A DNA stretch of 64,000 bases from Cystobasidiomycetes sp. EMM_F5. Taxonomy: Eukaryota. The position numbers and the translations under genes were made by a program. Shown one piece after another: positions 40,292 to 59,000 of this stretch (its first letter is position 1; every line of letters starts with the position of its first letter). Location: contig JBPGPT010000002.1 in the NCBI GenBank assembly GCA_051047955.1, positions 496,001 through 560,000 of the forward strand, given 5' to 3'. The notes under the pieces were generated by a model. The model saw only the letters and a list, made by a program, of their open reading frames with translations. It was not told the DNA's origin and did no database searches.

Positions 40292-41826
40292 TTACCAGCC
40301 AGTACCCCACCCTCCATTCGCCTCTTCCGCCTTCTTCTTAGCTTTCTCTGCTGCTACTCGCGGAGCTTCTTTTGCCTGCAGATCTGCGCGGAGGACGCCT
40401 TCTCCTACGAGTGCTTCGTAAACCGCAAGCGTGACTACCATACCATTTCAGCTAATCAATTAGTCGGACATCAGTACTACCCACAGTAAGCATCGTTGCC
40501 CGCGTTATGCAACCGCCTCGCAGGGATCTGCAGTAACTGTAGCGCTTTGGAAAGACCAATCTGACTGATTGAGCCGGGTATTCCACTCGCCGCAAACAGC
40601 TTTTGCGTATCTTGGATATAGACGGTACCAGCTTGTAAGACGATATCGTTGGCTTCGCCCACAGGTCGGTCTGCATCGATTTTAGGGAGATCCATCTGCC
40701 AATTTGATGTGTCCATGCCTAGCGTCTTGAAGTATGAAATTTCGGATGACGCACTGTGCGTGACGAGCAGGACTGGGACCCGTTTAGACAGGTGATTCAC
40801 CTTTTGCGCAAACATGTTGACAGTGTCGGCTTCACTGATAGTCATTGATTTGCCGAATATAAAATGCTGTAAATTAAGGTTCTGTCAAGCAGTGAAAGGA
40901 ATTACCTTCGCGTAGGGAAGCCTACATTTCGATTATCAGGCGTATATGTGCCATTTCTGTATCCTAGAGCATCACTGATGACTATATACATACTCAGTGA
41001 GTGATTAATCGGACGAACGCATATAGACTGACTTGCATGCTGGCATTCAACGCTCGTTTGCATAATCCCGTCCAATTCACCATGCCACTCGATGATTGCC
41101 CAACCGATTTCCCTGTTGGCAGGTATGCACATCAGATACCAGATCATGAAACTACGCGTCGCTTCGTTATTGTCAGTACTATGCGAAGACTCACAAGATT
41201 ACAGAATGTTCGTGTTCATAGCTTTCAACATCGACGGAGACGACTGCTCCATGCCCCGTCCTTGTAAAGTCATCATAGACCTTCTTGTTCTGTTGATATA
41301 GATCGGCATTGTGCGTCAGACGCAAGCCAGACCGAGTAGCTTGTAGGGCTTCTGTCGATGTAAATTTAACGGGTTCTATAGTCGAGAAGGCACTCGGCTC
41401 GACTCGTTTACCAGAAGCCACGTAGAGACCGTTCGGATCTAGTTCAGGATAGGCTGCCACCACAATCGCTCGGAGGGAGTTGGCGCTGCTAGAGTGGAAA
41501 TATACGCCAGTTGCCCCGCTTGAGGCCAACGTGCACTTGTAGAATTGATGCGGACCAGCCCACTCCTGTCAGAGACGATATGTCAGGTCACTAAGCGACT
41601 CTATGCCATGAATCACAGCCAACACTGCCTTGCGGGGCGTTGGGCGACCCCTTGATGAGCCACTCCTGTTTCAAAAAGCTATTCGCAAAAGGCTTCGGAC
41701 ACCCTCTGTAGATGAGATGACTGAGCCAGCTCCTTGCTGTTTCGCGTTATATAAGTCAGACCAGGGTTAGTACGCAGTGTGTCCTTGCCACGCACTGAGA
41801 GCTTCGTACGAATAGTAGCAGTCCAT
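40292..41826 (-). CDS. Gfd2/YDR514C-like protein (RNase H-like DEDDh exonuclease fold)
   Basis: VSVDVESYEHEHSVIL|EIGWA, NGTYTPDNR|HFIFG, LLVTHS..E, IQDTQKLFAA, LHNAGNDAY. Confidence 0.8.
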
Positions 41827-42440: not shown

Positions 42441-45347
42441 ATGGCCAACCAGGCCAGTCAAGGCTATGCAAAGGCGTACCCCCAAGACTACCGCCCGGAC
42501 GCCAGGCAGCGCGGCCGTGTCAGTATCGCCCACGTACTGCCGGCGTCAAAGGCCGGCGTACTTCGCGGCAAGACTCGCGGACTTCCAGCAGACCTCATAT
42601 TCAGCACCGTCCTCGCCCAATTCATCCTATGCCTGTCTTTGCATCTCGTCAAGGAATGGCTCCTCAGTTCTGGTGGACGCGCCCCGGTAGTCGCAGTAAA
42701 CGTGCGGCTGCTGGGTATCGCGACTGTGCTTCTGGGCGCTTGGTACAGACCGTGGAGATTATCCGGAATGCGTATAAAAGTGGGCTATACAGCGACTCTG
42801 CAGAAGGAAACGCTAGCTAAACAATGCTTTACAAAAAGTCGCCACTACTGCTCGTTTACGGCGCGCTCGTGTGCGCTGAAAGTCTGGCATTTCTGACTGC
42901 AGTGGACCAGCTTCCAGTGCTGAGGTTAGCACAATGTGGAATCAATGTGGCTTAGTCATTTTGCTAAAGCAATCTCCTTCTCATCCAGGGTCATCATGCT
43001 CACGCAGACGAGCGAATTGTGGACATACGGACTGCAAGCCATGCGCAGGCCGAATGCAGCAATCGCAGTGAATTCTTCCAGAGCGCAAGTTTGTTCCTCA
43101 TTTCTCGCTGACAGAACTTGACAGAGAAACGCCAATTTCGTCGCACTGGCTACAACCGGAGCAGCATACGTTGCTGAGATATACCTCAATCGCGGTGGGT
43201 GACCCTTCTTCGTGCAACATACAGTATCCCACTCACGTTTCGTTTTAACATCCAGAACTCACAAGAGCAGCCGTCAACACCGGCTATCTGGCTATTGCAG
43301 CCTTCCTTACTGTCAGCGCTACCAGACGAGATCTGTCGCTGAGCCTTGTCCCGCAAGAAGCATCGCCATCTCCGGACAAATCCGATGTATCTCAAATGCA
43401 CGGTCGTCTTCACGCTCTCGGCGTGGCAACGTCACTCCCATTCGCCTTTGCGACCACATTCCTTCAGCCATCAGCGATGCCATCAGACGAATTGCCTTCG
43501 ACCATGGTCTTACCAACACTAGCCTTCTTTGCTCTCGCTTTTCATCTAGTCATCCCGATACTAGAAGCATCGGCACGAAGTCGCGTCGTTACAATCAAGC
43601 TCTTTAAACTCGAATGGCCAACGGCAGTAGCTACTGCTGCTTTTGTAGGCACGACGGCATTCGAGCGAATGATGCACGTTACAGATTTCGTAGTCATGGC
43701 CATCGCATACTTTGGTAGGTCAACGTCTGATCGTTTTTACCGGTATAACATCTGATACCATAGCACATTGCGCATTTTAGGCATCACGCAAATTCTGTAT
43801 GCAGATCCTCGGCTACGAGCAGAAGCAAGCGGTGTCAATGACACTTCATCGGCTTCTGCCGGATACCAAACAAGCAAGAAAGAGAGTACTACCGCACTAG
43901 AAAGCCTGGAGAGCCAGTACCGGCACGTAAGGAGTACGATCAAGACTATCCTACTAAATCCAGACAGTCGCAAAATCTACTTTTTCTTGTGCCTTAACCT
44001 GGCATTCATGTTTGTGCAGATGATGTGGGTTCACTGCACGTACAAAAACTATTCTTTTTTAGCTTAGCTAAATATTGGCTTGAAATTGATAGGTATGGTA
44101 TCTGGACAAACAGTCTTGGCCTAATTTCAGATTGTGAGCAAGTTCTTATATTGGTTGTATCGGAGAACTGACATGTTCTGAAGCAATACACATGTTTTTT
44201 GACTGCTTGGCGCTTGGTATGGGCCTGTTTGCCAGTGTCATGGCTACATGGCCCCGTAACGAAACTTTCACTTACGGGTAAGCTTGCATTACAAGCGGTG
44301 TGAATGTCTTTCGGACTCACTGACGGTTCCGTCATTATAGCTACGCCCGCGTGGAGACGCTGTCTGGATTCGCAAACGGGATATTCCTCATTCTCATATC
44401 CATATTTATCGTCTTTGAAGCTATTCAGAGGCTGATAGATCCGCCAGAGATGAATACCAATCAGCTACTGCTCGTCTCCGTCGCTGGCCTAGGTATCAAC
44501 CTTGTCGGCATGTTTGCAACCGGTCACCATCATCATGGCCACTCGGTGAGCGTCTCGATTTCGCTCCCGGGTCCAGCTTGCTAACTTTGTTGACAGCACG
44601 GCGGGCACGACCACGACCATGGGCATGGGCATTCTCATGCCGACCACGGCCACAGTCATGGTCATTCGCACAATATGCACGGTGTCTTTTTGGTGAGGCC
44701 ACGACTTGAATCTTGGTTGAAAGCTCCTGACATCGTTGGAACCGTGATGGTTTTGCAGCACGTTATGGCAGACACCTTAGGATCAGTTGGCGTCATCATC
44801 TCCACCCTGCTCATCAACAGATACGGCTGGACAGGGTTCGATCCGATAGCTTCCATCTTCATTGCCGTTCTCATCTTTGCATCAGTCGTTCCGCTCGTCA
44901 CAGAGTCGGGTCGACTGCTGTGCTTGGATATTGGCGTAGATCATGAAAAAGACGTGAGAAGCGCGTTAGCGAAAGTACGTGTCACGAGCTATTGCGACTC
45001 TCTTCATAGGTACATCACTGATGACAAAGTGATTGCAGCTGAGCAACATAGAAGGATTGTCATCGTACGCCGCTGCGCGGTTCTGGCCCAAGGATCCATC
45101 TACGATGATTGGCTCGATACATGTTCAGCTCGCACCCTCTCCTTCGCACGATCGGGCACACCAGCATGGCCAAAGCCGAGCAAACGGCAATGTACATAAT
45201 CACGCAGCGCATCATGCGAATGTTGAGCGGGTCGTCAACAGAGTAGAGAGCATCCTCAAAAGCGGTATACAAGGGCTTGTGGACCTCACAATTCAGGTCG
45301 AACCGACCGAGGGTAGCGATATGTGTACTTGTATGGTGGTCATCTAG
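42441..45347 (+). CDS. MSC2: CDF zinc transporter, Msc2/Cis4/ZnT5-type
   Basis: DSRKIYFFLCLNLAFMFVQ, TNSLGLISD..HMFFDC, FTYG..RVETLSGFANG, His-rich loop, NMHGVFL|HVMADTLGSVGVI, GSIHVQ. Confidence 0.9.
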
Positions 45348-45904: not shown

Positions 45905-46779
45905 TCAGGCACGGTAATAGCCTGAATCATCGGCTTCATTGTCGCCTCTCTTGTATTGCCTCTTGTCTCGTGCTCCAGGGAGAAGGCTTGGGTGAATGTT
46001 GGCTAAAGTTATAGCGAGAGTAGCACGGCGCCCACGGGCAATCGGAGACATCAGCTGAGAAAGCTTGCTCTCGACTTTGAAGCTGTGATATAAACGCACG
46101 CATGACACCACCTTCGGAGATCGTAACGTGCTTCAGCAAAAGGCGCAGCTCCTCGTCGTTGGATACGGCAAGCATAATGTGTCTGGACGGATTGGATGGG
46201 TTAAGACGTAATGATAGTAAGTGATCAAGTAAGTTGTAACCACAATTGCTTGCATCACTCACCGGCCCTTGATACGCTGCTTGTTATTGTCTGTTTAAGC
46301 AGAGGAGAAGCGGACTGGAGATGTGAGCCTGTACGTTAGTCCGCCGGAACCCTAAGTGCCACGTACCACGAGCAGCATTGCCTGCCAGCTCTACGACCTC
46401 CGCGATGAGGCTGTTGAGAATTTTGAGCCAAACAGCATCTATCAACAACGCACACGAACGTACTATTCAACGACAGCGGCCAGATAGACTGCAGACAAGA
46501 CAGAAAGATCAAGTTTCGCTCCGCTGGCAGTATAAGCATGACCTACTGGGAGTCGTTTCTCCAATCCTGTACTTTTTGCCGTGCATCTTGCGCAGGTATC
46601 TGTCCATCCTACTGACTGGGAAGATCAATCCAGCTAAAAGGAGATGCTGCAATGTCAGCAAATCATCAACGTTGATCAGTCATGAGGGCGTGCTCACCCT
46701 TTTCGGCTTTCGTGACACGCTTTGGCGCGTCCTTGTCGTAAATTTTGATGTGTTTTCCGCCATGTTTGCCTGCTGCCAT
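45905..46779 (-). CDS. Divergent histone H2A variant, copy 1 (~148 aa, 7 exons)
   Basis: Spliced: ..KAEK|AGLIFPVSRMDRYLRKMHGKKYRIGETTP|IYLAAVVEY|LIAEVVELAGNAAR|DNNKQRIKGR|HIMLAVSNDEELRLLLKHVTISEGGVM|PNIHPSLLP.. Confidence 0.9.
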
Positions 46780-47365
46780 GTCTGATGACGAGGGGTCTGT
46801 GGGTAGTAGGAGACGTGAAAGAGTAATGGGCAATGTAGAATGGCTACAAGGCTGATAGTGGTGTTTGAGAAGTTTGTCTGCAGGAGTGAAGAGGTCTGAG
46901 AAGAGGAGTAAAAGAGAGGAGGAAACGAGCCAAAACAAAACAAAAACGCGTCCTTCTCTTTTTGCCACTCTATCGTTTCCAAAGCCGTTGAACGCCTGTA
47001 TTTAGCACTTACAACAGGTCGTACAGACCGGATGTGTCGTTTGTTGTGCACCTATTGATGGTACATGAGCGGCAAGAACACTGAAAACTACAGGGCACGA
47101 TGGAGAAAGTGAGAAGACAGCCTACGGAGCGTCGAGGTGTTTGTTCTAGAACGTCTGCGACCCTCACGTCGAGTACCTGTTCGGCGGATACTCTTCTGCA
47201 TCGTTGGCAAGAAGTCTAATGTGCCGGCAACCTGGCTTTGCGAGTCTTGTTATGCGTTATTCGATTTCAGCGCTTTCGACCAGAGCTTCGTCCTGAGAAG
47301 GTCGGCAATCCCATCTAGAGGAATTTATGAGCTGAAAGAATGCAAGCTTGTAAGTGATGCAAGGC

Positions 47366-48307
47366 TCACTGGTCACAGACTTTCTTTGAGCGGACTTGGC
47401 GTAAAGCAAGCTGAGGAAGCCATAGCCAGCCGCTTTTCAAGCGCAGTGGTTACGCGAGCAACTGATTTCCTCCTCTTCTCCTTTGTCAACTTCCTGTTCC
47501 TATCTGTTAGCCTACACATTGGGTTGATATTCGCTTGTTATGAGGTAGGGAAATGAGGATCAGAATGAGATTCAACGAAACATGAGCTGGCTGGAGGCGA
47601 AAGGTATGTACCCTCGACAGACTTACGCATTGCACTAGCGGCAGAGATTGTGACATGTTTGAGCATGATGCTCAATTCCGCATCAAAGGCAGCGGCCAGT
47701 TTGGTGTGGCTGGAAGCGGTACCGGTTCGACACAAAGAAGCGGTGTCAGCAGAGAGATACACACATGTCAGCCAAGACGTCTCATTTACCGCTCTCCGAT
47801 TCGATGAGCTTTGTCACCTAATGACGGTAGGGGATCGAAAACGAAAATTGAGCGTTGTATCATCATCCTGACAGATATGGCAGGTCGCACGTTGAGCAGC
47901 AATCCCTGCGACCTCTAGAACTTCTGCAATGAGGCTGCAAGTGTGAGACAAGCACGGTGAGAGTCATTCACAATGTTTAACGACAAACATACTACTCGCC
48001 AACTGCAGCGAGATAGACTGTACTCATGAGCGTCAGATGGCTTAATTGCTGTACGGGGAATGATGCCTCGTCACCCACTCGGTGCCGCTTGTCCGATGCT
48101 GAATTTTCCAGTGTGCATCTTGCGTAGGTATCTGTCTACCTTCCCGACAGGAAAGGTCAGCCCGGCTGCAAGAACAATGTAATGTCAGATCATACAATGC
48201 GGATCAGTCGTGCAATTGTTCGCACCTTTTACAGTCCTCGAGTTGTTCTTTGGCGAGTGCTCGCGCGTATAGTCGATCTCTTGAGCGTGGTAGTCGCGAA
48301 CTGCCAT
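47366..48307 (-). CDS. Highly divergent histone H2A variant, copy 2 (~172 aa, 7 exons)
   Basis: Spliced: ..SRTVK|AGLTFPVGKVDRYLRKMHTGKFSIGQAAP|IYLAAVGEY|LIAEVLEVAGIAAQ|RDKAHRIGER|HTKLAAAFDAELSIMLKHVTISAASAM|PNINPM plus a basic tail. The last acceptor (AAG) is less certain. Confidence 0.8.
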
Positions 48308-48727
48308 GACTCTAACGGTGAAAGGGGTCAGTGCGTTGCGAGGTGGGATTGATCATTTAAGATGCAAGAGGACTCGGATTAAAAGTCAGACGTTGAATGT
48401 GTCGTTATGGAGTAAAAGTGAATGACAACAGCCTTGGACAGCGTCACAAATCTCGGCACCGCGACCTTCTCCTTTGCCACTCCTGCATTTGCAACTGGCA
48501 ATGCTGCGGTGCATCTTCACAGGACAAGACAGATTCAAGGAAGATAGCAGGAAATGCATCTATTGTATCGGTAGACTGGCAACTGAGTGTTGACGCGTGC
48601 TTCGGATTGACCAGCTCAATCGCCTAACGCAGGCAGAGTGTTACAGCGCGAGAGTGCTCTTTCAGGCTTCCCTTCGCTGAAAACGGCCATTACTGTCTTT
48701 TATCACTCTGCCGTCATGTGTATGCGC

Positions 48728-49591
48728 TCAGAAAGGTAAAGTTGCCTTGTCAGTCGTTTTGGCAGCTATGCGGGCCTGTAGAAAAGCAAATTGTGTCAGC
48801 GGGCGTCGACACAGTAGAGATACACAATTCACCTTGTTGTAGTCCTCAATCCGCTTTGGCATACTCTCCATTCTTGCTTTTCTGTCTGCTATCCTCGCCG
48901 GCTGCGTTCGTTCCCATTTGTGCAATTTGAATTCTCTACCTGGCCTGCCTTTATACGGACCCGCCGTAGGTTTTGTGAGATTCTGTCTGAGCTTGTTGAT
49001 AGCTTCTTCCTCCGTGGTTTCCGGTGCCTTCACTGGTACAAACGGTAATAGATTTTGCACGGGCTGTTGCCCCGGCGACACTCGCATAGCAGCGCGTATG
49101 AGCTTCTTCTGCTGTCGAGCCTTGTATAGTGGGGTGGAATAGACACGTCGACGACCATTCGTGCTAAGAAAGGACGGAGAAGCTTGACCTTGCGTATCAA
49201 TGCCAGTGGAGGCTGCTTCTGAGGAGCGGGGAAACGGCATGCTCTCTGAAATGAACGGACTGTTTGATTCCGTCCAAGGCAGAGATCTTGCTATCTTGCG
49301 GAATGATTTGAATTGTGACATTGGACTTTTCTTGTGAACGGACTTGAGCGTCAATCGGAACGGCGGCCTCGTTGAAGACGAGCTGGATGCAATAGAGGAT
49401 GATGGGGATGTCGAAGATGACGATGATTGTGTTTGCGCGGCGACATGCCTGCTGCTCCTCGGTTCACTCTTCTGTGCTGGACTGCCCGGTCGCAGCCCTA
49501 GTCGATGTTGCTCCCGCTCATAAAAGCGACCCAACAGCCGTACAGCATTAACAGCGCTTCGGCTTTGGATAACAGCTTGTTGCATAGACAT
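48728..49591 (-). CDS. Mitochondrial ribosomal protein mL59 (MrpL25)-like
   Basis: Presequence-like N-terminus; SPFL...PLYKARQQKKLIRAA; GPYKGR..FKLHKWER..RKARMESMPKRIEDY; ends LPF. Confidence 0.75.
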   Translation of the reverse strand: MSMQQAVIQSRSAVNAVRLLGRFYEREQHRLGLRPGSPAQKSEPRSSRHVAAQTQSSSSSTSPSSSIASSSSSTRPPFRLTLKSVHKKSPMSQFKSFRKIARSLPWTESNSPFISESMPFPRSSEAASTGIDTQGQASPSFLSTNGRRRVYSTPLYKARQQKKLIRAAMRVSPGQQPVQNLLPFVPVKAPETTEEEAINKLRQNLTKPTAGPYKGRPGREFKLHKWERTQPARIADRKARMESMPKRIEDYNKVNCVSLLCRRPLTQFAFLQARIAAKTTDKATLPF

Positions 49592-49879
49592 GTTGCTAGA
49601 TTGTTGGCAAGAAGCCGCATTACCGTATCTCGCATGTCCTGCTGCCAAATGATGATCGGGCGTCATGCAGAGCAAGCCATCAAGGACAGCCTTCGATACG
49701 ATAAGAGCATGGGTTGCATCGAGCATACATCAAATCTGGATTACTACTGCCTCCCAAAACGAAACACGAAAAATACTTAGTTTAGCCGATTCCTTGATTA
49801 ACCCATGCACTCTACCCGTGAGCGCTGCTCTAGCACTGCACAACGCCCAGCGGTTCTTCCCCTGTTTTCCATCCATCCA

Positions 49880-52800: not shown

Positions 52801-54420
52801 TATGTACCTATACTTACCGCTCCAGTGGCAGAATGCAGTATCACGAATAAAGCGTAAATAGGGGAATGCATCCGTGACTGCGCAAAGCATTTTTCAGTCA
52901 TTACATGCATTGCAAAGATCTTCATGACCTACGCGTATTGCAGAGCGGTGTTCCTGTCAGACACCACCGATACTTGCCCTGAAGTTCGGCTACCGCTTTA
53001 GAAGCTCTTGTGAATGGGTTGCGGATAAGTTGCGCCTCATCGAGAATAATTCTATGGAAGTTTACTTCGAAGAGGGGACCTTCAACTTTTCTCTTATCGT
53101 CCTTGTCCTCATCGAACCATCTGCAGGACATGTACTTCTGTCAGCTACATCACCGAAGTCTGAGTGGCAAGCGCTAACTCTGCAGCCATGGTACCATAGG
53201 TTGTGATAACGACATCGTATTTTGAGATATCCTTCTTCTTCAAGCCCTTCTTGCTTTCGCGATGATAGATTAGTATATCATAAGTCCCCTCGTCTGTCTT
53301 TTCCTCAATCTCGTCTTTCCACTGGGTCAACAATGCCATCGGGCAGAGGACGAGCGTAGTCTTGCGTTTGCGGTCTTTCGGCGGCGACAGCGCCATGAGG
53401 GAGATCATGGTACACGTTTTACCGAGACCCATCTCGTCTGCGACAATACCGCCATTCTTCTCTTTCTCTCGGTGCAAACACCAGTTGATCCCGATGCACT
53501 GGTAAGGATACGGAACGCTATAACCACACATATCAGGATTGTATAGCACACATCTCGAGAGACCTACATGTTTGTGCCTTGAATGAAGGATTCAGGATGG
53601 GTGAGGCCGAGCGCTTCGCGTGCTTTGCCAATGTCCACGTCGCCTATCCGAGCATTGGTCAGTAAGATCCATACACTTTCAAACGACAATGCACAAACGT
53701 ACCTTCGTGTCCCGTGCCAGCATTCGTCTGCTTTGTAAATTCTTCAATCGTTGCTGCAATGTGCCTGCCATCACCATAGATCAAATCTGCTGCCGACATT
53801 TCGACCGCTGACATTGGACGTCTTCTCCGATTTGTCCCAAACAGTGGCATATCGTCATCGCTATCTGACATGCCTAGGTGCGTCTCCATACGATCATTGT
53901 ACAATCTCGCTCTGCGTGTGCGACGTCGGATTTCGCCTTCACTTGCGGAAGAGTATGCTCCTCCATCGTCTTCATCCTCATCGCTATAGCCCACGGTCGT
54001 TTGGTATGCCGATTGCGAAGTCGTCGGCCTCGCGGAGGATGATGAGGTGGAAGGAAGTGCGCGTCCAGCAGTTGCATCGAAATGACTGCTTTCGCGACTT
54101 GTGGTTCTTTCGTGATTTGCTGAAGCCAGGGCCGGTCTAGCTATACTCGGGTTGTTCCACGCAGACCATGCTCCAACGCCAGCAGGCTGACGCGGAATGC
54201 TACTCGATGTCGAAGGAGTACCTCCAACATGTCTGGGCGAGTAAGAGGAGGTTGGCATTGAGGAACGAAGAGGTCCTTCATTCGGCACAGGCCCGTCGAA
54301 AAGACTGCGATGAGCGTCTAGAGTGACACCTAGACGTGGCTGGAAGCCTTGCATGAAGAGCCTCCCAGGACTAGCCGACGGCGGAGCAGCTCTTGGTGAC
54401 CCAGAAGCGGCGGTGTCCAT
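49880..54420 (-). CDS. SNF2-family ATPase with RING finger (Rad5/Rad16/Uls1-like)
   Basis: [100 protein letters not shown]; many introns, start approximate. Confidence 0.9.
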
Positions 54421-56000
54421 GGCTGAAAGGCCGCTTCCGAGCGTCGTCACGGAAAGTCAATGTGGCCCCGAACCTCAAATTTCAGCCAAACGCAGTCTTC
54501 GCGTGTCCACTGTCGTTCGAGCGAGTCGTTTCTCTCGTGTAGACCGTCATTAAGAGCCTCAAGAAAGAACCCGCATACGTGTTGGCGTCAAAGAGACGCT
54601 TCCTGTCCGTGTTTATTGCCAGGCACGGAGTGATCGAGGGCTGAAACGCGGAAAGTGGAGCATCGAGTTAGACAGATGCGAGCAACGTCGGACGAAGAAT
54701 AACATCGTACAGGGCGCGGTTTATGGCAAGACGTTCGCCCTGCTGTCGGAGTCCGGCTGCTACGTGGAATGCAGCGCACGGACCCTCGGCGAAGATGAAC
54801 AAGCCCCGCATGCAATACATACACGGGGTTCTCTGTTCGCGATGATACAGCCTCGTCAATCTCCAAACTGATGCTGACTATATCGCCCGCCGGCATTGCT
54901 GAATCCCTATAAATTCCACGTTTTTGCATTCTCAATTAAATCTGCTACCAACGATATCGCCCATCTCCTGAACGTTTGCTTACGAAACGTACATGGTTAT
55001 GCGTAAAAGTTTCATTTCCGCAAGCTTCGTATCTTTCCAGTCGTCAATTTGGAATCTCGACTTCATCCTGTGGAGCAAACCTGCAGTCTTTGGTATGCCA
55101 TTGCAGGTTCAGCTATGTCTAAACGAGACGAGTGCGCTCAAAAGATAATATTTGGAACCATCTATCAGCAGAGCACGGAGCAGCTCTGCGGTATGTGCTC
55201 ATGCTTTCACACAATGTGGATTGGTAAGCGATATTAGCATCTCGGGCTGGAGAAACGGGGCTGCGGTGTGCTTTTCGAGCATCTGCTTGTCCATATAGCT
55301 TGGAAGGGATCTCACCGTCACTCATAGATACACAACGACTCGCTTGACTGCCTTTTGGCTGCAGACTTCCTGTTTTTAAACCTCTACAAAGCGCGCGTTC
55401 CAGGTACCGGACTTGTGCTTCGGCGTTTACGGCAGAGCATGCGTGCGTTCGCATTGTGTGTGTTGCAGTCTTGTCCAGCTCTGAATTGCTGTTTCGTTAT
55501 TCTGCTGGACTAGGCTGCTGCAAGGGAAACAACATTGGGAGTATCGTTCCCTTTGCTCGCCGTCCGCTGTGCATCTCGCTTGGCGGCCACCGGCCAGCAG
55601 GCGCACTGTGCTGTCAAAAGAAAGTCAGTCGCACGCAACTGCAACAGCGATAGCGAGACATACACGATACATTGAGCGACACGCTGGTTGAGCTGGACGA
55701 GTCCCCCCGTTGGACCGCGAGAGCATCGCCTGAACCGACTGTACGCGACACTGTCCGGCAAAGCGACGCTGGCTTGACCTTTTTTGGCGTTGAAGCTCCG
55801 CTGCCGTCCTCAGGCAAGGTTGAAACTGCTCTAGACTTTGCAAAGGCTGTCGCATGCCAGCCCGACACATCCATCACACTACACCCTAAACCACATTCGT
55901 TGATCCATCTATTGCAGGACTGAAGAGAGCCAAAGGCAGGAAGAGCACATCATTCATCTCCACGTCCACACATATTATATCTAAAACCCAATTACCCATC

Positions 56001-59000
56001 ATGCCCGTTCTCCGAGACCCGCCAAACGACGAACGGAGGAGGCGCAATATGCCGGCCCCCGATACCGACACAGATACCGACGGTATCTCCAGGCCATTAC
56101 GCGCACATTACCTGACAGTCGATGATGAAGACCATCGACTCCGGATAGTCCGAACACCGACAGAATCCCTTCATGAAATTGCCAGAGAGGATGAACGCAG
56201 AGGTGTCGGCAAGAGGAAGCGGAGGCACACATTCCGCGCCAGATCGTTCCTAAATAGGTCAAACACTACCGCTACTACTAGCTCAAAGGTTGGACGAGCT
56301 CCCAGCCAAGTAGGCAGCAGTAGTCACGGCCATTCGAGCTTTATTCGACCCTCCACCTCTAGTGGAGGCATAGCAGCAGCCCTAGCGAAAGCGTCGCATG
56401 GCCTTGGCAACGATTTCGTGCAGCAAGTTCGAGAGGATCAGCAACAGAAGGCCCTGACAACGCGGACGGCAAATCAGGAAGAGGAAGCCAAAGCAGAGCA
56501 ATTTCGTGCTCCTGCAGAAGAAGGACTCGATACAGGCACGACAGATGTCAAAGCTGCAGAAGGAAGGAGAAGGAGAAACGTCTACCTGAATGTACCGATA
56601 CCCTCACACGAGCTCGACAAGTACGGCGAACCGAGAATATATTCGAGGAACAAAGTTCGGACGTCGAAATATACCATATGGACATTTCTACCTAAAAACC
56701 TGACTGAACAATTCAGGCGTGTCGCGAATCTATACTTTCTAGGACTCGTGATTCTACAAAGTACGTACCAGCCACTGGGATCTCAAACTCAAGCATTGCT
56801 GACGTTGCGTACAGTATTTCCAATATTCGGAGGTGCATCGCCCGTCCTAGCGATGTTGCCGTTACTTGCTATTTTAACCATCACGGGAGTCAAAGATGCC
56901 ATAGAAGACTATAGGCGGCAACAGCTCGACGACGGAGTCAACAACAGCGCTGTAACGAGACTCGGTGACTGGCGGAATGTCAACGTGCCAAGGTACACGC
57001 GTAGCATAATTGCACGTATTTTCGGGTTAGGTGGCAAGCGCAACCCCGATGCGAACTCCTCTTCTGGCGCGCCAACACGGCAGAAGAAGGTCTCGAAGGG
57101 CGTGCGCAAGTTGAGAGAGAAGGAAGGAGAATTCAACGCCGACTTCCTATATGCCGGAGGAGCTGTTGCGCAAGACTCGACGGCTAGCTTCTTTGACCAG
57201 ACGATACACGACAATCGAAGTACGGATAGTCACGCTCGACCGACCGACTCTGTCAACCACTCTCACCTACTGGAGACGCTTGCTCGAGAGGAACGCATTG
57301 CTGCTGACGAGTCTTATGCTACAATTACCGGAAACGATAGCACAGTCATGCTTGACGCTCCTCCGGCCCTTTCGTCGTTACCCATGTCGGGATCAAATCG
57401 GTCGCGCTCAAAGAGCTTAGCAAGGAGCATGGCGACATCGGCCCGGACAATGCAGAAACAAGGTGTAGTTGATTACGATCGACAAGCGCCTGGCACAGCC
57501 AAGTGGGAAAGAACGCTCTGGAAGAAGCTCGAAGTCGGTGATGTTGTCTTACTGCGCGAAGACGACCAGGTTCCAGCGGATATGGTAGTATTGTCGACGA
57601 GTGATGCCGATGGACAATGCTTTGTTGAGACGAAGAACGTAAGTCGAGAAACAGTGGTGTACCCGCAAACCAATACTGAACGGCTTTCATATTCAGCTTG
57701 ATGGCGAAACAAACCTGAAGCCCAGGAGAGCCCTCAAAGGAACTATGGGCATCCAGCACGAGGAAGATGTCGAACATGCCGAATTTGTGGTCGACTCTGA
57801 GCCACCGCATGCGAATCTCTATAGCTATAATGGCGTCTTGCGCTATCAGATCCGTCAGAATATACCAAACAATGACGGCTTGCCGACATCTTCGGAAATC
57901 ATCGAGAAGAAGGAGGCAATCACAATAAATGAGCTACTGCTGAGAGGATGTGCCATACGAAACACTACCTGGATCATCGCCCTCGTTGTTTATACAGGCG
58001 AAGATACCAAAATCATGCTGAATCAGGGTGCAACACCGTCAAAGAGGAGCAAGATCGAGAAGGAGACCAACTTCAACGTCATTGCTAATTTTGTCATCCT
58101 TGTCGCAATGTGCGCAGCGGCAGCCATAGCAAACGGGCTCTATCTGGCACAAACTAATACATCTGCAAACTACTATGAGCCTGGTGTGCAGATCTCCGCC
58201 AGCGCGGTTTTAGACGCAGTCATTACTTTTGGGTATGTTGAATATCACACTTGCTTATTGCTTGCCTTGCTGACGTAGAAGCATGACCGGACCGTCATCT
58301 GAAGAGCTTGTCTCATCGCTTTTCAGAATATCGTGCCCATCTCGCTTGTCATTACGGTTGAGTTGGTCAAGACGATACAAGCCATCTTCATATACCAAGA
58401 TATCGAAATGTACTATGAACCCGTACGTAGATTACATTCACGAGCTGTTACAACGCACTCATCAACAGTCATCACCTCCCACAGCTCGACCACCCGTGTG
58501 TGCCGAAAACATGGAACATCTCAGATGATTTGGGCCAGATCGAATACATCTTCTCAGATAAGACCGGTACGCTTACCCAGAACATCATGGAATTCCAAAA
58601 GTGCAGCATCAACGGCGTACCATACGGAGAAGGCATCACCGAAGCGATGTTAGGACAAGCCAAACGCGAAGGACGCGATCTATCAGCTTTCGATCCTTTG
58701 CGAAACAAGGCACTCTTGCAGCAGTCCAAATCCGAGATGGTCCGCGATATGAACACATTGTTCCGGAATCGGTACCTTCGAGAAGACAAGCTTACATTCA
58801 TTGCGCCGAAGATGATCAACGAGATGGCGAATCCGTCAAGCCCGCACACGGAGCACATCATCAGATTTTTCCGGGCTCTAGCGGTCTGTCACACCGTCCT
58901 AGCGGATCGCTCCGATGCGGACAATCAGGACCTCATTGAGTATAAGGCCGAGTCGCCCGATGAGGCTGCGCTAGTTGCAGCTGCTCGCGACTGCGGCTTC

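Follow-up and report, generated by a model that had tools for sequence, protein, structure and literature searches.

Fungi are, to our knowledge, usually treated as having only the bulk histone H2A, which is often of the H2A.X type, and the variant H2A.Z. For other H2A classes, excerpts from PMC8015243 define the short H2As (H2A.B/L/P/Q) by a shortened docking domain and a reduced acidic patch, and H2A.W by an extended C-terminal tail with a KSPKK minor-groove motif. In the same excerpts the H2A.W tail and the linker of macroH2A are described as protecting or acting on linker DNA, and it is speculated that the long-tailed H2As of rotifers help against desiccation damage. Here we analyzed a stretch of 64,000 nt from the genome of Cystobasidiomycetes sp. 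EMM_F5 (contig JBPGPT010000002.1, positions 496,001 to 560,000, in the following called the window), which contains two H2A-like genes, the upstream gene A and the downstream gene B. The strain is a phyllosphere yeast from Magnolia without a sequenced sister taxon (PMC12697161). We consider it rather probable that the locus is an old tandem pair of genuine, selectively maintained H2A genes, in which B is a lineage-specific variant and A its more derived sister, and that neither of them is a canonical H2A, an H2A.Z or a macroH2A with a macro domain.

Gene structure and H2A features of the pair

Both genes are located on the minus strand and can be spliced by coordinates into open frames of seven exons each (Table 1), encoding 148 aa in B and, in the preferred model, 169 aa in A. 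The first six exons are equal in length and phase (82/87/25/44/28/83 nt), exon 1 encodes 27 aa in both genes, and all 12 introns have GT..AG borders, with lengths of 60/61/58/73/80/93 nt in A and 64/58/53/76/80/97 nt in B. The stop codon of A lies 593 bp from the ATG of B. The six equal intron positions and phases, the adjacency on one strand and the common derived features of the L1 and L2 loops support the tandem duplication that the original prediction had proposed for this locus. Its sequence statements, including the two-gene layout with six introns at equivalent positions and the N-terminal tails of equal length, were all reproduced, and they need correction only at the last acceptor in A, which is likely shifted. 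Two acceptors for this exon are found 30 nt apart in the same frame. The one implied before lets the exon start at 47503 and gives a protein of 159 aa, 10 residues shorter. The upstream one (47535-47534, exon start 47533, 169 aa) is favoured by homology, because the exon then begins like an H2A docking end, in parallel to B.

Both proteins are highly divergent histones of the H2A family. In Pfam, the deposited protein of gene B (P0001) matched the families Histone (PF00125; 46.7 bits, cut-off 26.4) and Histone_H2A_C (PF16211; 25.2 bits, cut-off 20). In PDB it found 207 sequences at E≤1e-10 (best 6.1e-34), and the best 60 of these 207 are all of the H2A type. Spliced A reached 105.8 bits to B in a local phmmer comparison and 88.9-100.6 bits to the other 24 H2As among its best 25 matches. 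As near-universal H2A positions we used 43 columns that are at least 95% conserved in 46 other H2A rows; B keeps 41 of them and A 31. The acidic-patch residues (E..E..E and DEE positions) and a full-length docking end are retained in B, which ends 26 residues past the docking segment. In the alignment, A keeps the docking length and changes one acidic position, and its C-terminal tail of 47 aa contains 13 lysine and arginine residues versus 4 aspartate and glutamate residues (isoelectric point 10.97). The N-terminal tails of A and B have no similarity to canonical ones.

The predicted loop sequences were found in the spliced models of B and A, with the L1 strings LRKMHGKKYRIG / LRKMHTGKFSIG and, in place of IIPRH, the L2 motifs IKGRH / IGERH. 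The proline of RIIPRH is therefore absent in both proteins; it is present in 290 of 292 other pattern-matching proteins, one of the two exceptions being an H2B part that matched falsely. As had been stated, A and B carry one additional residue in the L1 region, whereas this region has the usual length in 267 of 279 other H2A-family proteins and one additional residue in 7, three of which are macro-domain proteins. The description of this residue as H2A.Z-like stands insofar as H2A.Z has it too, but it also occurs in some protist macroH2As, and the best solved structure is a macroH2A domain. An SQ(E/D)-hydrophobic end, seen as SQEV in the canonical H2A of Melampsora, is absent at the C-terminus of both proteins, and neither A nor B shows a gap in the alignment where the H2A.Z row has its one-residue docking gap, both in agreement with the earlier description.

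Identities were computed in a single alignment with 18 named canonical fungal H2As as reference, which belong to Basidiomycota, Ascomycota and Mucoromycota and include seven Pucciniomycotina genera. Among themselves these proteins are 88.4% identical (79.6-98.1). An animal H2A reaches 83% to them, two macroH2A rows 64-67% and H2A.Z 63%, while B shows 57.5% (54.9-59.3) and A 46.6% (44.5-49.1), which bears out that both are far from canonical H2A. In the trees described below, the end branches measure 0.35-0.92 for B and 2.2-3.3 for A, with a median of 0.12-0.13. In a collection of 5.8 billion proteins, the closest of 33 matches, apart from the protein itself, was 66% identical. When 1.84 billion representatives were searched exhaustively with HMMER, 8544 matches reached E≤0.001, and none of the best 150 exceeded 63% identity. 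A metagenome scan with P0001 produced 149 pattern matches, of which none was confirmed as a relative, and Protein Atlas returned general H2A clusters only.

The top scores among the representatives belong to 14 fused predictions, in which two tandem H2A genes were joined to one protein. They make up 14 of 179 collected proteins (P0034-P0045, P0054, P0079, P0151 group), rank first when matches are sorted by score and can lead to wrong names where proteins are named automatically by their best hit.

A strongly divergent H2A could also be the ordinary bulk H2A of a lineage in which all histones have drifted. This would fit with a search with the Melampsora H2A as query (8000 candidates scored), in which no canonical H2A of EMM_F5 or of a named Cystobasidiomycete was among the best 120 of 7975 matches, and with the isolated position of the strain. 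However, canonical H2A is 80-98% identical over the three fungal phyla, the seven Pucciniomycotina genera included. Moreover, A and B share only 51% identity, and they possess neither an SQ end nor a head-to-head H2B gene. We regard this explanation as extremely improbable.

Age of the duplication and maintenance of both copies

The 51% identity of A and B extends over 116 aa. For the histone fold, the proportions of nonsynonymous and synonymous differences (pN and pS) are 0.224 and 0.725, which corresponds to a ratio of the respective rates (dN/dS) of about 0.1 with dS saturated. The introns of the two genes are barely alignable (z 0.2-5.6). Since dS is saturated and the introns are nearly random to each other, the duplication appears to be old. 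The ratio for the fold argues for purifying selection on this part of the protein, while the N-terminal tails give a dN/dS of about 1. The expected rapid evolution is therefore seen in the tails and in the long branch of A, but not in the fold, and a dN/dS of about 1, which together with a lack of transcription had been named in advance as speaking against the proposed variant family, is not what the fold gives. In a neutral simulation over Jukes-Cantor distances of 0.25-0.85, a frame of 116 codons was kept in 1-10% of the copies, and the probability that all 12 splice dinucleotides survive was 3e-3 to 4e-8. This low survival of frame and splice sites argues against A having spent most of its time as a pseudogene. 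Mutation resembling repeat-induced point mutation was considered as a cause of the divergence of A and rejected, as no bias was detected (35 C>T/G>A versus 33 reverse changes, equal GC content).

Upstream of their start codons, A and B have a block of 24 nt in common. It is the best local alignment between the two regions of 420 nt and has a score of 31, which was reached in none of 500 shuffles. The pattern derived from this block occurs in the window only at these two sites, a result that is circular because the pattern was built from them. The shared block hints at a co-regulation of A and B. In B it runs into ACGCGT, which we take to be the core of the MluI cell-cycle box of yeasts. If this resemblance is real, it would point to expression linked to G1/S rather than to replication-independent expression.

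Phylogenetic trees were calculated with FastTree (167 rows) and with IQ-TREE in a quick and a careful version (54 rows x 113 columns). The 14 multi-domain fused predictions and P0001 were left out, and a single H2A.Z row was included. The backbone was not resolved in the FastTree and IQ-TREE trees. In the quick tree A and B are joined together with the unnamed protein P0088 (Shimodaira-Hasegawa-like approximate likelihood ratio test, SH-aLRT, 87), and a clade of A and B was not rejected by the approximately unbiased (AU) test (p 0.41). Neither protein is found beside the H2A.Z row in the quick or the careful tree.

P0088 is an intronless, divergent H2A of 128 aa, encoded on a contig of 1063 nt from a public run, and shares several unusual residues with B. 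Its grouping with A and B was lost in the careful tree; it may be kin of A and B or may have been placed next to them by long-branch attraction. For a comparison of introns, loci of canonical basidiomycete-like H2A were scanned with P0069, the H2A of Melampsora larici-populina. The 80 loci retained from 502 confirmed ones all contain an uninterrupted match of at least 96 aa and offer no usable introns.

Several points weigh against two maintained sister genes. Gene A is altered at 12 of the 43 near-universal columns, including the docking motif GGV, which is changed to ASA, and the N of AGNAA. Its single exon pieces stay under the Pfam cut-off (12.2 bits), its last acceptor in the preferred model, AAG, looks weak, and the search of the 5.8-billion-protein collection (101-322 aa; 33 matches, 61 candidates) brought up no annotated protein for it. 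Because no orthologue was found in the protein and metagenome searches, conservation is judged from one comparison of paralogues with saturated dS. The careful tree separates A from B, which are joined in 17% of the bootstrap trees, and their sisterhood is drawn from the gene structure and the shared rare characters, with an AU test that does not reject it. The score of the upstream block is barely above that of the best shuffle, which is 30. For the annotation of EMM_F5, Funannotate with BUSCO training is described and RNA data are unmentioned (PMC12697161), and among public runs no RNA run matching the locus was found. To these points must be added that no canonical H2A of the strain was among the best 120 matches mentioned above, and that our statements on nucleosome mechanism are inferred.

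The changes in A can also be read in a different way, namely that only B is a working variant and A a decaying or recently inactivated duplicate, of which the frame is still open. The altered near-universal columns, the exon pieces under the Pfam cut-off, the missing annotated protein and the uncertain last acceptor all fit such a decay, as does the long end branch of A compared with that of B. On the other hand, the frame of 169 codons and all splice dinucleotides of A are intact although the introns have diverged almost to randomness, and under neutrality the frame would be retained in 1-10% of cases and the splice sites with a probability of 3e-3 at most. The pN and pS values of the fold are hard to reach with one lineage neutral throughout, and the upstream block is conserved. 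We consider the decay of A unlikely. That neither gene is expressed and both frames are relics is very improbable. The lack of a matching RNA run and the GenBank model of B, which differs in the last intron, would agree with it, but relics of such an age would be very unlikely to leave two independent frames of seven exons that are both intact and carry the signature of purifying selection.

Taken together, we keep to the reading of A and B as a maintained pair, which would have consequences for the nucleosome. B would be expected to pair with H2B and to enter nucleosomes as a replacement variant, because it keeps 41 of the 43 near-universal positions, the acidic patch and the docking end. The L1 loop is the only contact between the two H2A molecules in a nucleosome. 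Since this contact is longer in both copies, the altered L1 may favour nucleosomes with two variant copies (B-B, A-A or A-B) over a mixture with bulk H2A. The lost proline at the start of alpha-3 may alter nucleosome stability. With its weakened docking end and the basic tail of 47 residues, A may bind linker DNA, by analogy with H2A.W and the macroH2A linker.

The macroH2A name of gene B and its origin

The open reading frame (ORF) containing exon 2 of B gave a single match in the search of 5.8 billion proteins. This protein, P0001, consists of 184 aa and is listed at NCBI as 'Core histone macro-H2A.1 [Cystobasidiomycetes sp. EMM_F5]'. Its residues 1-116 are identical to our model of B. Beyond them, the sixth donor is left unspliced in the GenBank model, whose last 68 residues form a tail without H2A similarity (window 45905-46182). 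If the exon 46002-45905 is used in B instead, the vertebrate macroH2A fragment P0046 scores 137.8 bits in phmmer, compared with 119.1 bits for P0001. Because this exon raises the macroH2A score and aligns with the C-terminal end of canonical H2A, the GenBank model of B is probably mis-spliced at the last intron. The name 'macro-H2A.1' is not backed by any macro domain and can be explained by the first rank of macroH2A in the PDB and representative searches. Gene A is probably unannotated in the deposited genome. The notion of an undescribed variant family thus holds in part: our literature search found no report of lineage-specific fungal H2A variants, but copy B is already present in GenBank under its automatic name.

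Two public DNA runs, one of them labelled as phyllosphere metagenome, each hold one short contig (202 and 242 nt) with at least 99% identity to the locus. The contigs cover window positions 46567-46808 and 47992-48193. Since two runs contain such sequences, the same or a very close strain appears to be present in other samples.

The automatic name raises the question whether A and B derive from the macroH2A lineage, with the macro domain lost or never gained, as a fungal remnant of a variant otherwise known from holozoans and a few protists. The scores for B agree with this: its best solved match is the macroH2A.1 domain with 120.7 bits, compared with about 106.5 for H2A type 1 and 110.8 for H2A of S. 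pombe, and the best single-stretch matches among the representatives are macroH2As (Pecten P0043, 125.8 bits, 58% identity). At 11 columns in which the consensus of macroH2A differs from that of canonical H2A, B has the macroH2A residue in 6, the canonical one in 3 and neither in 2. Furthermore, macro-domain proteins are found among the few others with a lengthened L1, B was named by eggNOG/funannotate in this sense, and a clade of A, B and 10 macroH2As was not rejected by the AU test (p 0.35). An excerpt from Grau-Bove et al. infers macroH2A in the last eukaryotic common ancestor.

However, no Macro domain was detected by Pfam in 58 ORFs near the locus (37.8-57.7 kb), and the space between A and B is too small to hold one. 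Once exon 7 of B is corrected, the advantage of macroH2A turns into a tie (macroH2A 137.8, Zychaea H2A 137.2, Diversispora H2A 136.1 bits), and the mean identity of B to the macroH2A rows (56.7%) is not above that to canonical fungal H2A. Gene A shows a ratio of 3/3/5 at the 11 diagnostic columns, and the pair is neither in nor next to the macroH2A clade in the quick or the careful tree. As far as excerpted, the preprint of Grau-Bove reports macroH2A from holozoans and Meteora and not from fungi, and passages in PMC3380720 and PMC8015243 call it animal-specific. We therefore regard a macroH2A origin as quite improbable. The same low probability is given to its extended form, in which the pair would be a surviving fungal macroH2A system of two members without macro domain, with B as the variant of the nucleosome core and A carrying the basic tail that binds linker DNA. 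If true, it would place a macroH2A-type fold in Fungi and would support an origin of this lineage before the split of animals and fungi. Among the named variant classes tested (H2A.Z, macroH2A and H2A.X-type), A and B probably belong to none.

Genomic context and comparison with known H2A systems

The positions of the two genes, their exons, the upstream blocks and the neighbouring genes are given in Table 1. As stated in the original prediction, the pair has no H2B partner in the window: tblastn over the 64 kb revealed no H2B and no further H2A (two H2B parts, best E 0.54), and the Pfam search of the 58 ORFs was negative in both respects as well.

Table 1. Positions of the H2A-like genes, their exons and other features in the window (position 1 is the first letter of the window)
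Feature	Position	Strand	Evidence or remark
Gene A, upstream, more derived H2A-like gene, 7 exons	47373..48307	-	spliced open frame, six GT..AG introns
A exon 1, N-tail, 27 aa + 1 nt	48226..48307	-	ATG 48307, donor GT 48225
A exon 2, alpha-1 and lengthened L1 loop	48079..48165	-	87 nt as in B; 71% DNA identity to B exon 2
A exon 3	47993..48017	-	25 nt, phase as B
A exon 4, alpha-2	47891..47934	-	44 nt; 80% DNA identity to B exon 4
A exon 5, L2 loop, IGERH for IIPRH	47790..47817	-	28 nt; proline changed to E
A exon 6, alpha-3, alpha-C	47627..47709	-	83 nt
A exon 7, docking remnant NINPM, then 47-aa basic tail	47373..47533 (alternative start 47503)	-	acceptor AG 47535-47534
Gene B, downstream, better conserved H2A-like gene, 7 exons	45905..46779	-	spliced open frame, Pfam
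B exon 1, N-tail, 27 aa + 1 nt	46698..46779	-	ATG 46779
B exon 2, alpha-1 and lengthened L1 loop	46547..46633	-	87 nt
B exon 3	46464..46488	-	25 nt
B exon 4, alpha-2	46367..46410	-	44 nt
B exon 5, L2 loop, IKGRH	46263..46290	-	28 nt; proline changed to G
B exon 6, alpha-3, alpha-C	46100..46182	-	83 nt; its ORF matches Histone_H2A_C profile positions 1-18
B exon 7, docking end NIHPSLLP, then acidic tail	45905..46002	-	aligns with canonical H2A C-end; differs from GenBank model
Conserved block upstream of A	48460..48482	-	about 153-175 nt before ATG; local alignment
Matching block upstream of B	46947..46970	-	about 168-191 nt before ATG; local alignment, repeat D3
mL59 mitochondrial ribosomal protein gene, upstream of A	48728-49729	-	ORF match
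Cation-efflux family gene, downstream of B, convergent	44594-45199	+	ORF match
SNF2-related ATPase domain ORF	53145-53591	-	ORF match
Phospholipid-translocating P-type ATPase N-terminus ORF	55890-57701	+	ORF match
DEDDh exonuclease C-terminal domain ORF	40477-40884	-	ORF match

On the basis of these sequences, A and B form a very divergent, lineage-restricted pair of H2A variants, which is real and apparently functional. The pair is less similar to canonical fungal H2A than H2A.Z or macroH2A are, yet it seems to be selectively maintained, and it would be a natural experiment on how far the H2A fold can change and still be kept. In practical terms, one GenBank model is probably mis-spliced and misnamed, and no annotated protein was found for the second gene.

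Canonical fungal H2A of the H2A.X type, for example that of Melampsora larici-populina, has the same AGLxFPV start and the same alpha-2 EYLxAE..ELAG in the alignment, and its NDEEL and the docking end NI.P..LLP are also found in B. Unlike A and B, it has the usual L1 length, the RIIPRH proline and, in Melampsora, the SQ end. Instead of the head-to-head pairing of canonical fungal H2A with H2B, the gene located upstream of A is mL59 on the same strand.

Additional H2A-like proteins were observed in other fungi, namely in Tilletia (P0027/P0031), Mycena (P0004), Tricholoma (P0010), Rhodotorula araucariae (P0015) and Zychaea (P0002/P0019). They carry only generic names such as 'histone H2A', 'histone 2A', 'histone-fold-containing protein' or 'hypothetical protein'. 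P0027, P0004, P0010, P0015 and P0002 are 64.7-70.7% identical to canonical fungal H2A and thus much less divergent than A and B, and in contrast to these they have kept the proline and the usual L1 length. In neither the quick nor the careful tree do the divergent fungal paralogues cluster with A or B. The Tilletia proteins P0027 and P0031 are paired with high support (99/98, careful tree) beside a normal Tilletia H2A. In view of the unnamed paralogues in these five genera, the diversity of histone variants in fungi may be under-described.

H2A.Z has one extra residue in L1 like A and B, and the pair can further be likened to it in standing without an H2B partner in the window. The docking gap of H2A.Z and its AGNASKD-type end of alpha-2 are both absent in A and B. 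The short H2As differ from the pair in their docking domain and acidic patch, as B has the full docking end and all acidic positions and A changes one of the latter. Plant H2A.W and the long-tailed H2As of bdelloid rotifers possess a long basic C-terminal extension, as does A, but the KSPKK/SPKK motif of H2A.W does not occur in the tail of A, and there is no sequence relationship between the two.

The histone domain of macroH2A (PDB 9pm0, 1u35) is the top-scoring solved relative of B. The macro domain and the basic linker of macroH2A are both lacking in B; a macro-like C-terminus is present in 17 of the 179 collected proteins. Vertebrate and mollusc macroH2As have the usual L1 length, unlike A and B. 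B and macroH2A share the alpha-1/L1 pattern RM.RY..K.H.KYRIG and the alpha-3/alpha-C pattern HI.LAV.NDEEL..LLK.VTI, and the IHP in the last exon of B is also found in the vertebrate macroH2A row.

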